Shown: one piece after another, positions 7,626-63,634 of the stretch | Position numbering within the stretch: the first letter of the stretch is position 1 | How the letters are laid out: each line of letters starts with the position of its first letter | Source of the DNA: Octopus vulgaris | Lineage: Eukaryota | DNA length: 64,000 nt | Assembly (NCBI GenBank): GCA_951406725.2 | Contig: OX597830.1 | Span: 22,878,001 to 22,942,000, forward strand | Direction of reading: 5' to 3' | The notes under the pieces: generated by a model | The model's input: the letters and a program-made list of their open reading frames with translations, nothing else | Database searches by the model: none | What the model was told of the DNA's origin: nothing | Made by a program: the position numbers and the translations under genes

Positions 7626-8854
7626 AGTCTGTCTGTCTATGCAGGCATACATATAAACATACTTGTTACTCAGACACACGTATATACATATATATGTATA
7701 TGTGCATGTATGTAGGCAAATCAAAAATAAAAACAAAAACAACAAAAGCCAACGGACATACACAGTGAATGTATAAGGTCGACGATATATATACATATAC
7801 ATAAATATACATACATATACATGCGTGTGCGTGTGTATGCGAACACGCACACACACACACACACACACACACACACACATATATATATATATATATGTTC
7901 AAATACATATACAAGTGTGTGTATATGTATGTATAAGTGCGGTTGCGTATGTAAGCAATTTTAGGCATGTATGTGTTTCGCCTGTGTATGTAGGCGTGCG
8001 TATGCTCTACACTAACGTGCGCACGCGCAGACACACGCACACACACACACACACACACACACACACACACACACACACACACACACACACACACACACAA
8101 TTCTCCCTGGTTCTCTTTTCCTGGCGCCATGATAAAAGGCCTAACTTTATGGCTACTAAGACTAGAGATGGTGTAAAATCTCAGCCAGCAATGATAGTCA
8201 GATTTATTAACGCCCGTTTCCGAGATAGTTAAAGCTTCTGTTAGCTATCTTCAGTTTATAGCTGCAGGTCTGACGTCCTCTGCTGGTCACTGAAAGACAG
8301 TTATAAAAGAACGGACGAAACGCTTTGATTGGTTTCTCACTCGGAGGAATAGACATGTGATCTCACTTTATCGTAGTAAAAGCGACGATGTATGTATGTA
8401 TGTATGTATGTATGTGTGTGTGTATGTGTGTGTGTGTGTGTATGTGTGTATGTATGTATGTATGTGCGTGTCGGTGTGTATGTATGTACGCATGCATGTA
8501 TATATACATAAGTGTTTGTTTGTGTGCCTGTATGTGTGTCTCAGTATGTGTGTGCGTGTGTTGTACACATGCACACTTCCATTTACACAAACACGAAATT
8601 CTCTCCTTCTCTCTCTCTCCATCCATTCATCTGACAAGCTACCTACACACACACACACATACACAAACACACGCACGCACACACACATATATGTTTATAT
8701 ATATGCACGTATATGTATCTACACACATACGTATATTATATATATATCCATACACACACACATACAAATTTAAATATATATATATATATATCAGTCGCCA
8801 TGATAGATTGTTAGCCACTACACACATTTTTCTCTCCTTGTTTTTTCTGTGTCC

Positions 8855-8890
8855 CTTTCTGTAGAAGAGCGTAGGTTCGAAACGTAAAAG
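8855..8890 (+). ncRNA. Minimal type-I hammerhead-like motif with variant core (CUGUAGA)
   Basis: CUUU-CUGUAGA-aGAGC(gtag)GUUC-GAAA-CG-UA-AAAG; lies in a ~190-bp insert (8791-8981) between (TA)n tracts; homologue at 36995-37035. Confidence 0.55.
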
Positions 8891-9742
8891 ACTTTTTCTA
8901 TTCCGGAGCGTTATACTAATACATCTGTTTGTTTTGTACACCACCTGTCTTCGTCTTTTGTTTTTTTTCGTAAACTCTCCTTATATATATATACGTACAC
9001 ACACGCAACATACACTCACACAAGTACATGCGTACACACAAACATTGTCGAAGTTGGCTCGCTCGAGAGTGCGCGGGAATACCAACCAATCGGACAGACG
9101 ATGGTTCGTGTACTGATACCAGTTTTACATTGTGTCCCTGCCGAAGATACTTTGATTTCAGCAGCTCAGTTCATAATGGATTCAAATATCATCCTAGTGT
9201 ATCCGGTAAAACTTTCAACGAAGTTAACTGCTATCAAGCACAACTCTCTCGGACAACTGCTCCTATCTTACCCGAACAACTGCATCCACTCACCCGGACA
9301 ACCGCCTACTAATAATTGTCTCCAGGCAATTATTAATTACATGGAAAAATGTGAGCAGTCTTAAGACTATAAACCTGGGAAATTATAGGACAGGTTATTA
9401 CACTTGGAAAAGTTCGGGACGTCTAGTGAAATACAGAACAAGAAACTTTTTACTTAAAATATTGCAGCCAAGGATAAAATTTCAAATAAAATATTTTGAT
9501 TTAGGAAATATTAGCTTTTATTAAAACTAAAAGTTTTATTACTAGTTATTACTTCCGTTTGTTATTGTTACTTCTATTAAAAATAAAAATTAATCTTAAT
9601 TAAAATATTTTTTTGCACTTTAAAGCAATTAATTTTTTTAATTATTAATTAATAATTAGAAATTTGAAAAGAGGTTATAAAAAACAATAGTAGTACATAA
9701 TTAGTACAATAAATAGAATAATACAAAAATTAGTTACACATA

Positions 9743-10145
9743 GGCGCAGGAGTAGCTGTGTGGTAAGTAGCTTGCTAACCAACCACATGGTTCCGGGTTC
9801 AGTCCCACTGCGTGGCATCTTGGGCAAGTGTCTTCTGCTATAGCCCCGGGCCGACCAATGCCTTGTGAGTGGATTTGGTAGATGGAAACTGAAAAGAAGC
9901 CTGTCGTATATATGTATATATATATATGTGTGTGTGTTTGTGTGCCTGTGTTTGTCCCCCTAGCATTGCTTGACAACCAATGCTGGTGTGTTTACGTCCC
10001 CGTAACTTAGCGGTTCGGCAAAAAGTGACCGATAGAATAAGTACTGGGCTTACAAAGAATAAGTCCCGGGGTCGATTTGCTCGACTAAAGGCGGTGCTCC
10101 AGCATGGCCGCAGTCAAATGACTGAAACGAGTAAAAAGAGTAAAA
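9743..10145 (+). mobile_element. SINE family A
   Basis: Full-length homologue of 1099-1528. Confidence 0.85.
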
Positions 10146-10331
10146 AAAAAAGAGAGAGATTACAGTAAAATCTACCTAGAACAACAAATTCACAGTAAAA
10201 TTTTGTTGAGTTATTGCCAAGTCTTCACATTTTTAGTCTTGACCCAATGTCTATTTTTTACATAACGAATTTGCCTGTCATATATACTATTCTCCTTTGC
10301 ATAAACCTTTAGCTATATTGGTACTTCTGGC

Positions 10332-60500: not shown

Positions 60501-61053
60501 AAATTATTTTCTTCAAAACAGCTGCTCGGTCAAAATGTATATAACCGTAGCTACATGTATGTATGTCTGTATACGCATATATATATATATAAGAAATTAA
60601 AAAAGGAAAATACGCACACTTACATGGTTTTAATATAATTTTTAATATATCGACCGGTTCACGTGGGGACAACCGAAATTCCTCTTTTCTGTTACTACTA
60701 CTACTACTACTATATATATATAATTTTGTCTCCGCCTCACACACTACTTTATCAACACCAACCAGTTATAGTCTGTTAATGTGCCCGTAAATTAGCAGTT
60801 CGGCAAAAGACACCGATAGAAAAAGCACTGAGATCAGTTTGCTCGTTTGTGTGTACACACACACACACACTTTTTATTTTGCTCCAGTCGGTCTCTTGTT
60901 ACTCTGAGTATCAGATGTCGGTACATAGGATCTTCAGGCAAGGCACCTACAGATGAAACTCGGGGTAGCAAGTGAGTGACTCAACAAAAATAGACTGTAT
61001 TATTAATCTCAACTAGAGATTACTCCTTTATCTTACAGTTAAAACTACAGTTA

Positions 61054-61568
61054 CCGTAAATCCTCGAGTATAATCCGCATCTTTTCCCAAAATTTAAATG
61101 TCAAAATCCCTAGTGCGTACTATATACGAGGTTAAAAACGAAAAATATTTTCTAAGCAATGTCCGAGTCTCTATTTGCTCTCCGGCAATGTTTATTCAGA
61201 AGCATTTTGTGATGTCGGGCGCGAAAATACCTTAAGCCAAGCCTGAAAGCAATGAAGTCATAAAAGAATCATCCATAACTTGCAGTAAGCAACATTTATT
61301 AAGATAAAAGTATTCAGAACACAGAAAAGCATGTAACAAAAACAATTTGCAAACATATTTGCATTCCCATATAACAGTTAAGAACATCATCATTGTTGTA
61401 TTACGCATGCGCGGAGGTGTTTGTTCGATTAGGTGCTGCTGGTTTAATTATGCACAACTCAAGTTAGAGTGCGTATTATACACAAGGTTTAGGTTTTTCA
61501 GAGGTACAACCCCTTAAAAATCCTCTGCGTATTATACTCAAGGGCGGACTATACTCGAGGATTTACGG
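61054..61568. mobile_element. Tc1/mariner-superfamily MITE
   Basis: TA|CCGTAAATCCTCGAGTATA ... TATACTCGAGGATTTACGG|TA. Confidence 0.85.
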
Positions 61569-63117
61569 TATACAATTTTCATTTTTATTGGAGCTGAAAA
61601 TACTTCACAAACCGTTACTCAGTTTCACGGAACCGTTCGCCAAACACTCGTGAGTATTATTCAGAATATTTTAATCTATTTCCTTTGGTATTCGTGTGTT
61701 ATTTTCTCCACCCTTTATGGCAATGCCCCAGCATGGCCGTAGTCTAACGGCTGAAACAAATAAAAGATAAAAGCTACAAATGCACAAACGCAGAACTATA
61801 TTAATCAGTTCAGCTCCATAAATACGTTAAATGTAGTCATCATGAAGACGAAAGTTAATGAGGCATCGTTAAGCGCCATTATAGAGTGAATAATGTGCAC
61901 GTGCTTATGTGCTTGCCTTAATGACTGAGTTAATTGACGCTAATTACCGCGATGGATTATTAGTCAATACTGCTGGTCATATGAAGGTGGCGAGCTGGCA
62001 GAATCGTTAGCACGCCGGAGAAATAGAAACCAGCATTACTAGTCATATATAGGACGGTGAGCAGGAAGAATCGTTTCGCACGCTGGGCAAAATACTTATC
62101 TGCATTTCTTCCGAGTTTTACGTTTTGAGTTCAAATTCCGCCGGGGTGGACTTTGCCTTCCATTCCTTTCGGGGTCGATAAATTAAGAACCAGTTGCGTA
62201 CTGGGGTCGATCTAATCGACTAGCCCTTTCCCCAGAAATTTCGGGCCTTGTGCCCAGAGTAGAATATATATATATATATATATATATATATATATATATA
62301 TATAAGCACCTAAGTGCAGAACAAGATGGAGAGAATAATACTCGAATATCATAGGAGAAAGATTAAACGTATTCTTAATACTTACGACTGTCTGGTTAAC
62401 AGCTCTGGGAAACTCTAATTTTCAGCTCCAATAACACGTAGATTATCTACATTTGTAAAAAGGGAGTACTCGATACTATAGAAGAGACTAATATATTTTA
62501 TTTTAGTGGAGTCACTCTCTTGCTACCATGAGTTTCAACTGTAGGTGCCTTGCCTAAAGATCCTATGTACTCATATCTGATATTCAAAGTAGCAAGAGAC
62601 TGACTCGAGCAAAATAAAATACACTGTGTGTGTGTGTGTGTTTATTTGTGTGTGTGTGTATGTGTGTGTGTGTGTGTGTATGTATGTATGTATGTATGAA
62701 GTTAATAAAAGAAAATGGAGAGGAAAAAATATAATATATACTTGGTTCATTTTATTTGTATCACAAAGGAAACGTAAAAGTGATACCTAGAAGAATAAAG
62801 CTAAAAGGAAGCGGATTAACAAAACAACCAAAAGATATCCGAGAAAAATCCTACACATGTTTCTTATAGGTATCGTTTTTACTTTGCATTACTTTTCCTT
62901 TGTGATACAAATAAAATGAACCAAGTATCTATTATATTTTTTCTTCTCTATTTTCTTTATAATTTATTAGACTGTTTATACATCTATATTCAGGAACTTT
63001 CTTTCAATATTTTTGATAACGCTAGTTGGCATCTGGATTGTTATTAACAATCTCTTTCAAGGAAACTATCTCGTCAAAATGTGAATATATATATATATAT
63101 ATATATATATATATATA

Positions 63118-63634
63118 GGTGGACGAATGACCTGTTAGGGTCACTCCTAAATTGTTATATTTATATATTTAGTCGTTGACTATTTTCTCTTTTCCACTAG
63201 GCCGTTGGTAGCGATAAATTTCTATTGAATTTTTTTGCTACCCTAAATTGACTAATTGATAATTTTCTGAATAATTCTGAGATTGAATCGGCAGTTTATA
63301 TTTACTGCTGATAAGTTTGGCGCGAATACGTCAGTCTTGAAAATCTTAAGACAGATATTCCGTAGGCATCGATACAGACACCTCGTGTATATTTGTCTCT
63401 CCCAGGTTTTTTACTGATGAAGTGTAACCTATGGTAGATTAGCTTAATTTAATTTAATTAAGCTAATTTAATCATTAATGACACAGAAACGTTGCAACGT
63501 CTAAAAGATGAATTAGGGTAAATGTTTTTAAATTTTCACCTAATTTCTGAATTACTACTACTTGGCGGTGTGAGTTATGGCTGCTCTTTCTGGTGGACGA
63601 ATGACCTGTTAGGGTCACTCCTAAATTGTTATAT
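63118..63634 (+). mobile_element. Non-coding hammerhead-bearing element (474-bp unit and 43-bp terminal direct repeat) in (TA)n
   Basis: GGTGGACGAATGACCTGTTAGGGTCACTCCTAAATTGTTATAT at 63118-63160 and 63592-63634. Confidence 0.85.
63409..63506 (+). ncRNA. Type-I hammerhead ribozyme (canonical core, GUC site)
   Basis: UUUUA-CUGAUGA-aGUGU(long AU hairpin)ACACa-GAAA-CGUUGCAACG-UC-UAAAA; 12-nt palindrome ACGUUGCAACGU. Confidence 0.85.

Follow-up and report, generated by a model that had tools for sequence, protein, structure and literature searches.

The window, which is the whole 64-kb stretch of Octopus vulgaris DNA analyzed here, carries eight hammerhead-ribozyme-like motifs spread over six repeat families (F1–F6), together with broken remnants of Penelope-like elements (PLEs). 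Its features are as follows.

8792–8982, + strand: F1, assigned as the 5′-truncated 3′ end of a Neptune-like PLE, with a hammerhead-like motif at 8859–8886
21434–21489, − strand: 3′ part of F2 up to a (TG)n tract, placed by visual comparison with aligned copies
21870–22141, − strand: 5′ part of F2, a retrozyme-like unit of ~335 nt whose copies are 80–86% identical, tandem and inverted
21940–21985, − strand: F2 hammerhead of canonical type with a bulged stem I (descriptor scan)
25540–26188, − strand: left arm of the 561-nt retrozyme F3 (1.15 units), whose long end meets (TA)n (locus L091)
25834–25877, − strand: F3 hammerhead copy 1, 2-bp stem III with a palindromic loop, weak stem II
26187–26602, + strand: F3 right arm, short end at (TA)n, 0.74 unit (locus L091)
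26365–26408, + strand: F3 hammerhead copy 2 (descriptor scan)
28913–29822, + strand: broken Hydra-like PLE remnant, GIY-YIG end, 68% to the 806-aa ORF of locus L301
36908–37081, − strand: diverged F1-type copy, 77% to locus L355, with a degenerate-core motif at 37001–37028
37112–37199, − strand: short 3′-terminal fragment of a young Neptune-like family, long end (blastn 97.7%)
39732–39879, − strand: F4 left arm, short end, assigned to a Poseidon-like PLE 3′ UTR, with a minimal hammerhead at 39777–39812
39941–40054, + strand: F4 right arm, long end, internally deleted, carrying part of a tRNA-like segment
45672–46005, − strand: F5, an old element, with a hammerhead at 45698–45793 that has a 3-bp stem I
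52275–53770, + strand: broken Neptune-like PLE reverse transcriptase (RT) remnant, 70% to the 753-aa ORF of locus L257
63119–63634, + strand: a 474-nt unit of the young non-LTR retrozyme F6 and 42 nt more, between (TA)n tracts
63414–63501, + strand: F6 type-I hammerhead with a long stem II and a 4-bp stem III

A strict descriptor (core, stem I of at least 4 bp, stem II of at least 3 bp and palindromic stem III) recovers five canonical motifs (21985−, 25877−, 26365+, 39812− and 63414+); the other three (8859+, 37028− and 45793−) are atypical. On average, 100 local dinucleotide shuffles yield 0.07 motifs, or 0 once stem III must be palindromic, and a relaxed core adds 8859+ and 37028−, giving seven palindromic matches against a shuffle mean of 0.03. 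F2, F3, F4 and F6 pass the strict scan with the core CUGANGA/GAAA/NUH and three stems, open at stem I. The 45793− motif fails it, its stem I being 3 bp long, and is nevertheless family-wide in F5, which otherwise has the type-I core and stems. No match reached the Rfam gathering score in 10 loci: the F2 hammerhead matches HH9 with E 0.0037 and 21.6 bits (gathering score, 52), and F6 has no hammerhead match. Because blastn detects no similarity among the six families and the motifs far exceed shuffles, the original prediction of sequence-unrelated type-I hammerhead inserts is upheld in these respects; the hammerhead-like motifs are real and lie in six unrelated high-copy families.

Other parts of that prediction require correction. 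The core of F1 is not a canonical hammerhead core, since U replaces A6 in 20/25 and 15/17 matched copies. Minimal structure does not hold throughout: F2 has a canonical bulged stem I and the 4-bp stem III of F6 can close in the monomer. Stem III had been described as palindromic, but in F5 it is self-complementary via G·U pairs only. Most inserts were said to abut (TA)n or (TG)n, but F4 does not abut (TA)n, its (AAT)n tract being internal. The proposed F2 insert (21434–22660) is too long, as 22142–22660 matches no family copy. The reported RT and GIY-YIG remnants are indeed present (52275–53770 and 28913–29822), and the reported lack of a credible ORF agrees with F3 and F6, in which no ATG ORF exceeds 58 aa.

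Families F1, F4 and F5 and their parent elements

Half of the families represent truncated PLE copies, since F1 and F4, and F5 in one locus, continue upstream into PLE coding sequence. From their sequence context, F1 and F4 are, and F5 probably is, what remains of Penelope-type elements; F2, F3 and F6 are protein-free units. The prediction that all six are stand-alone inserts is thus not sustained, and many independent non-autonomous ribozyme families are retained only as F2, F3 and F6; the alternative named at the time, that the inserts are 3′ ends of autonomous PLEs, describes F4, F1 and probably F5.

Neptune-like RT/endonuclease homology lies upstream of F1, in sense, in 8/30 loci, and the parent was identified by tblastn at 26–37% identity, by which F1 is recognized as the truncated 3′ end of a Neptune-like PLE. 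Canonical-core relatives are present in flanks. The remnant at 52275–53770 matches Pfam RVT_1 with E 0.00076, below the cut-off. In the related 753-aa family, RVT_1 and GIY-YIG relatives were found and the clade is called from motifs, L257 having DKG and a CX2-5CxxC linker before its C-terminal GIY-YIG. The young Neptune-like family forms more-than-unit arms and no canonical hammerhead was found in it, which indicates that such arms need none.

F4 sequence lies past the stop codon of a Poseidon-like RT–GIY-YIG ORF, downstream of which a tRNA-like segment occurs in 23/30 loci and the hammerhead pattern in 16/30, by which F4 is placed as the truncated 3′ end of a Poseidon-like PLE. This parent, whose clade is named from motifs, has RT and GIY-YIG pieces in natural copies and a tail of ~30 nt. 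The tRNA-like segment sits inside the PLE 3′ UTR, and many copies start at its first bases (by eye); ARAGORN finds no tRNA in 29 loci. A Hydra-type endonuclease end lies upstream of F5 in 1/60 loci, and F5 is probably the 3′ end of a Hydra-like PLE.

The remnant at 28913–29822 matches Pfam GIY-YIG with E 0.0056, below the cut-off. The L301 family, assigned by motifs, resembles the Hydra clade: DKT replaces DKG, the linker is CxC-x-C, the endonuclease has CxxC and CxH, the 3′ UTR holds a hammerhead, and the targets are (TA)n (PMC8557442). By tail length (~87 nt) and target, the best helper candidate for the protein-free families might be a Hydra-like PLE that is intact and targets TA. Locus L301 also contains a fused two-family insertion.

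Hammerheads in PLE ends are ordinary. Those of F4, F5 and the degenerate F1 resemble published ones: stem I is short, an additional base follows A9, stem III is palindromic and most lie in truncated copies; the family-wide U at core position 6 of F1, and the F4 3′ UTR with a tRNA-like segment and A- and B-box-like motifs, differ from that description (PMC4209133).

Protein-free units and the anatomy of their insertions

Searches for F2, F3 and F6 covered the genomic contigs and returned no holder recorded as RNA; the GC content of all three families is 34–36%. F2, the older unit, is split by an abundant repeat inserted at 21485–21870; its tandem period is 335–338 nt, its circular fold is not structured (z 0.2), and no tblastn match to PLE proteins falls inside the element. 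F3 (1514 candidates) has a longest ATG ORF of 58 aa and a circular fold of z = −5.8 (25 shuffles). F6 (1617 candidates, 39 places scored) forms tandem and inverted arrays of 97–99% identity, with a longest ATG ORF of 43 aa and a circular fold of z = −6.2 (25 shuffles); its copy in the window is a single arm with a short end, and cleavage is predicted after 63501. Antisense folds do as well as sense ones (z −4.5 and −6.8). A paired change in F6 stem III (91 versus 45 junction passes) keeps the stem by one compensatory double change, the young families holding too few changes for more.

The F3 and F6 loci that were read are the 39 best-scoring places of at least 1500 candidates per family, and hence the youngest and most complete copies. 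Insertions of both families lie in (TA)n and comprise two multi-unit arms in opposite orientation, the outer ends falling at two fixed positions, and young insertions are dispersed over most large contigs. Across the 78 loci, arms are made of whole-unit sequence traversed up to about nine times and nothing else, with lengths of 0.2–9 units (longest in the two families, 6.8 and 8.9). The outer 3′ ends adjoin (TA)5 in 73/74 and 75/78 ends scored, and correspond to two fixed internal start sites 94–100 nt apart. Outward two-armed insertions have one long and one short end in 24/28 (F3) and 26/29 (F6) cases; none has two like ends and seven have one end off-site, so that the pairing holds in 50/50 insertions with both ends classifiable. 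By eye, it is also seen in Hydra-like (5/5) and Neptune-like (5/6) PLEs of this genome, one Neptune-like insertion (L267) having two long ends, as well as in F4 (12 clear, none alike) and F2 (9 clear). F2, F3 and F6 thus carry the hallmarks of PLE insertion, namely two fixed 3′ ends, an inverted 5′-truncated arm and an AT-rich target.

The arms are joined head to head with 0–19 nt of overlap or filler, save one 35-nt overlap. Fold-back copying is excluded as the rule, because only 4/50 insertions have coinciding 5′ ends and in 20/50 the short arm is the longer one. Restarts inside arms were seen at L017, L103 and L220. The 5′ ends lie within 5 nt of the cut site in 1/70 and 3/70 cases in the two families, against 1.6 and 1.4 expected, and 137 and 122 passes over the cut site (259 in total) contain no indel.

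Variants are shared between the arms. Subfamily markers are discordant between arms in 0/27 and 5/28 cases in the two families, against 20.3 and 25.0 expected by permutation. Locus-private variants filling all units of both arms number 9 and 13 (22 in 16 loci), whereas just one is confined to particular units in each of the two arms. Leaving aside an unrelated older copy beside L196, no private variant is fixed in a single arm while missing from its partner. Distinct variants that occupy every unit of one or more loci number 33 and 44. A>G or T>C changes make up 19/38 insertion-wide private variants versus 26/140 single-unit variants (Fisher p = 2 × 10⁻⁴), a bias that makes the former unlike later DNA mutations spread by conversion. 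In about 11/78 loci variants are common to some units only, which indicates that DNA-level duplication occurs too; L189 calls for a template of two units, and L235 has a mosaic structure.

Template and machinery of copying

On balance, we favor the view that F3, F6 and the older F2 are non-LTR retrozymes copied into (TA)n by a twin-priming PLE on one circle, with F1, F4 and probably F5 as PLE ends. The stronger statement, that F3 and F6 insertions directly record twin-primed rolling-circle reverse transcription by a dimeric PLE protein on one ribozyme-made circular RNA, several rounds each way, is one that we credit and doubt in equal measure. An array would be transcribed, and the hammerhead would release a 474- or 561-nt monomer for ligation into a circle, as proposed from coral, mussel and axolotl retrozymes (PMC7229834). 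A PLE protein like that studied in PMC11167929 would cut both (TA)n strands, and each DNA end would prime RT at one of the two fixed internal sites; the observed part of this step is the pair of fixed ends, each used once per insertion. Both cDNAs would then circle the same template and stop randomly; observed here are the lengths of the arms, the random placing of their 5′ ends and the variants they share. Finally, the two cDNA ends would be joined. Points against this view are that 8/9 Xenopus retrozyme dimers remained uncut in vitro (bioRxiv 10.64898/2026.07.22.740005), that L267 has two long ends, that antisense folds match sense ones and F2 is unstructured, and that no sequence link between F2, F3 or F6 and the autonomous PLEs fetched was found, besides the PLE biochemistry, hammerhead-free arms and partial variant sharing discussed next.

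The hammerhead could instead be idle in copying, the same twin-priming PLE machinery using uncut linear multimers from young clonal arrays and the arms lengthening by unequal crossover. This is rather unlikely in our judgment, although the only biochemical PLE study found that hammerhead mutants inserted normally and that uncut RNA was the main substrate (PMC11167929). It also fits the young Neptune-like family, whose arms exceed one unit although no canonical hammerhead was found there, the partial variant sharing in about 11/78 loci and the crossover model of the 2026 preprint (bioRxiv 10.64898/2026.07.22.740005), and the absence of a cut-site pile-up is equally expected. Against it, each of the 33 and 44 all-unit variants would require a one-unit bottleneck followed by re-multimerization; single-unit variants (140) are far more numerous than those shared by part of the units, which is what simultaneous synthesis of the units predicts; just one variant is unit-specific in both arms; and the spectrum of fixed variants is RNA/RT-like.

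One-unit bottlenecks and both-arm identity would be explained without ligation if the template were a cleaved linear monomer, a nicked circle held by stem I, with RT jumping end to end at each pass. Template jumps do occur, as at the restarts in L017, L103 and L220 and the fused insertion in L301. End-to-end jumps of R2-type RTs are expected to leave an excess of 5′ ends and indels; with neither a 5′-end excess at the cut site nor an indel in the 259 passes, this template is improbable.

It is more doubtful still that F2, F3 and F6 are pseudo-LTR pieces of unsampled autonomous PLEs, so that all six families would be ordinary truncated copies. A search for copies that extend upstream showed precisely this for F1 and F4 and probably for F5, and the F2, F3 and F6 loci read are the best-scoring ones. 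However, arms traverse the whole unit up to nine times with nothing else in 78 loci, the F3 and F6 units close on themselves, and tblastn matches to PLE proteins in F2, F3 and F6 loci fall outside the arms. By blastn, F2, F3 and F6 units or tails have no match to the Neptune-like or Hydra-like elements fetched, a comparison that covered part of ~10,000 PLE candidates. That DNA-level amplification alone produced the arrays, as satellites with relic hammerheads, has next to no probability despite some DNA-level duplication, being largely refuted by the two fixed ends and opposed by the dispersed young insertions, inversion junctions, TA targeting and the compensatory change in the ribozyme.

Relation to known retrozymes and PLEs

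Metazoan non-LTR retrozymes lack ORFs, are low in GC and repeat head to tail with a single type-I hammerhead per unit, in genomes that also have PLEs (PMC7229834), and F2, F3 and F6 share these features. The kind is already known (PMC4209133; PMC7229834; bioRxiv 10.64898/2026.07.22.740005). At 474 and 561 nt, the F6 and F3 units exceed the 150–450 nt typical in PMC7229834 and lie within the 51–972 nt range of the preprint; 24/57 Xenopus families are homologous to a pseudo-LTR, whereas F2, F3 and F6 show no such homology among the PLEs compared. Our literature search found no paper on retrozymes in a cephalopod: a giant squid paper lists 235 Rfam hammerhead matches, unanalyzed, and neither "hammerhead" nor "ribozyme" occurs in the main text of the repeat annotation published for Octopus vulgaris in 2026. 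F1–F6 may stand under other names in its repeat library, Repbase or Dfam.

As in PLE insertions, F3 and F6 show partial tandems, an inverted 5′-truncated copy, a one-end tail, two internal RT start sites and AT-rich or (TA)n targets (PMC8557442; PMC3846280; PMC11167929). Their tails are 94–100 nt long and belong to ORF-less units, in contrast to tails of 30–40 nt in the PLE papers, where the tail is optional or often one-ended rather than paired long and short in 50/50 cases; PLE work in vitro found no strand difference in start site (PMC11167929), unlike F3 and F6. Inverted two-armed insertions with long and short ends in (TA)n and arm-shared variants are without description in the accessible parts of PMC7229834 and bioRxiv 10.64898/2026.07.22.740005.

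Circles have been proposed as templates for more-than-unit copying (PMC4209133), and mobilization via circular RNA has been proposed for retrozymes with PLEs as strong candidate helpers (PMC7229834); retrozyme integration is described as still to be elucidated, unequal crossover being offered for tandems (bioRxiv 10.64898/2026.07.22.740005). The insertion anatomy of F3 and F6 is evidence on this mechanism: the PLE scars of two young families of ~500 nt could be mapped to position, and their variant patterns favor one monomeric template per insertion. Because the substrates are small, the start sites defined and intact candidate helpers present in the genome, the choice between circle and linear template is directly testable. 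If the stronger statement on rolling-circle copying is true, animal retrozymes would be moved by PLEs through circles, and the PLE tail would reflect an obligatory use of two start sites, one long and one short.

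Hammerhead motifs and their families

The 64-kb window occupies C17:22878001–22942000 in an assembly of 2.8 Gb and 227 contigs. A descriptor scan, used in place of Rfam, found five canonical type-I hammerheads in it, whereas 100 local dinucleotide shuffles averaged 0.07. Relaxing the core added two motifs, and an eighth is common to its whole family, yet has a stem I of just 3 bp. The eight belong to six repeat families (F1–F6), between which no similarity was found by blastn:

21985, minus strand: canonical type-I hammerhead
25877, minus strand: canonical type-I hammerhead
26365, plus strand: canonical type-I hammerhead
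39812, minus strand: canonical type-I hammerhead
63414, plus strand: canonical type-I hammerhead
8859, plus strand: motif gained with relaxed core
37028, minus strand: motif gained with relaxed core
45793, minus strand: motif with 3-bp stem I

Candidates at 8254 and 57537 (both minus strand) were rejected, being without stem I. At gathering score, Rfam did not call the motifs in the loci of the families tested, and its matches listed for the window (best 150 of 228) are solely microsatellite-driven; simple repeats also dominate a general repeat search. The original prediction of at least six unrelated hammerhead-bearing inserts was mostly right as an observation, with corrections to its description. 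Its interpretation as independent retrozyme-like families holds for F2, F3, and F6, whereas F1, F4, and probably F5 are ends of Penelope-like elements (PLEs).

First-look searches returned 3294 (F1), 617 (F2), 1514 (F3), 1411 (F4), 393 (F5), and 1617 (F6) candidates; about 40 places were scored in each family, and these represent its highest-scoring members. More than ten further, differing canonical motifs were met by chance in the flanks of fetched loci (L063, L067, L073, L089, L265, L271, L363, L364, L369, L379, and others), so the genome has many more families than the six of the window. Core divergence in young families is 0.26% and 0%, versus 1.1% and 0.9%; this conservation is not taken as proof because the copies are not independent.

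PLE ends and retrozyme-like families

By sequence, F4 is the end of a Poseidon-like PLE: its tRNA-like segment and hammerhead lie downstream of the stop codon of a frame encoding a Poseidon-type reverse transcriptase (RT) plus GIY-YIG. Searching with the stretch that precedes one copy gave 30 loci, of which 23 show the segment downstream and 16 the hammerhead pattern; the patterns used were strict and miss decayed copies. In the window (39880–39980) and in loci L316–L345, the segment carries A- and B-box-like motifs and lies in the PLE 3′ UTR, immediately ahead of an (AAT)n tract and the hammerhead. Numerous F4 copies begin with its opening bases, which would be compatible with a polymerase III sub-transcript serving as a SINE carried by the PLE.

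F1 is likewise assigned to a Neptune-like PLE end: of 30 loci picked by an upstream segment, 8 have, still further upstream and in the sense orientation, homology to Neptune-like RT/endonuclease. The F1 core has U at position 6, and flank relatives have a canonical core. F5 is only probably a Hydra-type PLE end, because the Hydra-type endonuclease end lies upstream in 1 of 60 loci and is joined through low-complexity sequence. Small PLE hammerheads reportedly cleave as dimers, a result ascribed to Lunse et al. in 2017. F1, F4, and F5 correspond to the minimal hammerheads that PMC4209133 reports from PLE pseudo-LTRs.

F2, F3, and F6 have the make-up of retrozymes. The unit, a monomer repeated head to tail, is 474 nt in F6 and 561 nt in F3, both 97–99% identical between loci; that of F2 is about 335 nt, and the family is older. 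In the complete loci, 39 each for F6 and F3, the arms (the inverted multi-unit halves of an insertion) consist of the unit and nothing else (0.2–8.9 copies; median about 800 nt), and outer 3′ ends adjoin (TA)n in 73 of 74 (F6) and 75 of 78 (F3) ends scored. These elements are fresh members of a published class, the non-LTR retrozymes; the class, its circles, and the proposal of mobilization by PLEs already appear in PMC7229834, PMC4209133, PMC5680766, and bioRxiv 10.64898/2026.07.22.740005.

Other repeats of the window include the following:

14307–17851: pyrimidine tract of (CTTT)n type, 3.5 kb
24175–25239, 26737–27700, and 63700–63977: LINE-type RT fragments directly beside (TA)n tracts holding F3 and F6
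33599–34155 and 58815–59234: an abundant interspersed repeat in tandem arrays (periods 184 and 176 nt); the first has no Rfam match
57878–60297, minus strand: disrupted Gypsy-like RT and RNase H fragments

The position of the LINE fragments indicates that several retroelements share these microsatellite targets.

F6 words occur in sequencing runs X9, X14, and X16–X19, labelled as four other organisms (share 0.39–0.61), and related F6 copies in three of these runs; the family is thus not confined to one label. No RNA records were listed among runs matching the families. Among runs presumed to be RNA, some have contigs that cover all 29 bins of F6 and F3, with the unit junction bridged, and one X14 contig ends in what appears to be a cDNA adapter. 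This coverage was set aside as expression evidence, since the contigs cannot separate circle from tandem or give strand and ends, and there is no silent control stretch.

Anatomy of F3 and F6 insertions

Most insertions (29 of 39 in F6; 28 of 39 in F3) are two-armed, outward-pointing, and joined head to head. Within the unit, their outer ends occupy two fixed positions, the long and short ends, which lie 94 nt (F6) and about 100 nt (F3) apart. One long end is paired with one short end in 26 F6 and 24 F3 insertions, two like ends occur in none, and seven have one end off-site (binomial p = 3e-8 for F6; for F3, p = 1e-4 once a query that favours long ends is allowed for). Judged by eye, the same pairing is present in 5 of 5 Hydra-like insertions (distance between ends, or tail, about 87 nt), 12 of F4 with one unclear (about 30 nt; L143 excluded as a duplicate of L142), 5 of 6 of a young Neptune-like family with one long/long (about 48 nt), and 9 of F2 with six unclear (about 45 nt).

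The fixed long and short ends are the PLE tail, which PMC11167929 attributes to RT starts at two internal sites, and which PMC8557442 and PMC3846280 call optional or often at one end. The two end sites pair mutually in short local folds of F3, F6, and the Neptune-like tail; such modeled pairing would bring the two priming sites together. In full circular folds it is not clearly seen.

At the junctions, the two arms overlap by a few bases or are separated by a few bases of filler. Neither arm is consistently the longer, and in 4 of 50 insertions the 5′ ends coincide. Classic twin priming without overlap is rejected as a rule because 5′ ends are spread over the unit, and fold-back self-priming is rejected as a rule by the arm lengths.

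Template and candidate helpers

The simplest reading is one monomer-length template, primed by both DNA ends and read repeatedly, namely a circle. Arms <60 nt and the last 12 nt of each arm were excluded; the older, unrelated second copy in L196 was excluded from the variant counts, all of L196 from the subfamily-marker comparison, and L028 and L235 from the substitution spectrum. A distinct-haplotype count was dropped as inflated by coverage. The two arms are discordant at subfamily markers in 0 of 27 and 5 of 28 cases (20.3 and 25.0 on average under permutation). Of the five, four resemble changes at a single site, and one is a mosaic locus. At positions covered at least 3 times in two-armed loci, 9 and 13 locus-private variants, from 16 loci, are shared by all units of the two arms; one, which alternates in L189, is specific to certain units in both arms, and 97 are single. 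The L189 variant requires a two-unit template. 'Private' means absent from the other 38 loci, and some such variants may mark unsampled subfamilies; even so, each insertion-wide one implies a one-unit bottleneck somewhere.

Changes of A>G or T>C make up 19 of 38 insertion-wide variants versus 26 of 140 single-unit variants (p = 2e-4). This excess places the former at an RNA or RT step, or marks them as selection-filtered, rather than as later DNA damage spread by conversion. A-to-I editing was rejected as their source, since neither strand is favoured (10 A>G, 9 T>C). Partial sharing of variants among units, seen in about 11 of 78 loci, indicates that duplication at the DNA level also occurs. 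As regards the single circular template, 5′ ends lie near the predicted cleavage site in 1 of 70 and 3 of 70 and are otherwise spread over the unit, and no indels across that site were found in 259 passes.

Hammerhead cleavage and circles of F2, F3, and F6 are proposed from sequence. Against them, a lizard Poseidon in vitro used mainly uncut RNA as substrate (PMC11167929), eight of nine Xenopus dimers did not cut (bioRxiv 10.64898/2026.07.22.740005), and the young Neptune-like family has more-than-unit arms, with no canonical hammerhead found in it. This intact PLE (L256–L272; e.g., L260:3656–8835) is about 4.6 kb long, with many near-identical copies, a 367-aa frame upstream of a 753-aa RT-endonuclease frame, and just a degenerate hammerhead-like motif.

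A sequence search found nothing shared between F2, F3, or F6 and the Neptune-like or Hydra-like PLEs compared with them as possible helpers. The Hydra-like family, with an 806-aa frame, DKT motif, TA target, and long tail, is a candidate helper only; its ORF falls in cnidarian-type clusters of a protein atlas. At L301:486–5462, an insertion of a further hammerhead family, with two arms and a tail of about 110 nt (no coding match in the part examined; relatives in L305 and L379), is fused, with no TA spacer, to a 5′-truncated Hydra-like PLE, suggesting a template switch by a single RT between two RNAs.

In the openly accessible literature, no account of cephalopod retrozymes, two-armed retrozyme insertions, or a strict long/short rule was found. 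The anatomy of F3 and F6 offers evidence, open to testing, on the mechanism by which retrozymes and PLEs integrate.
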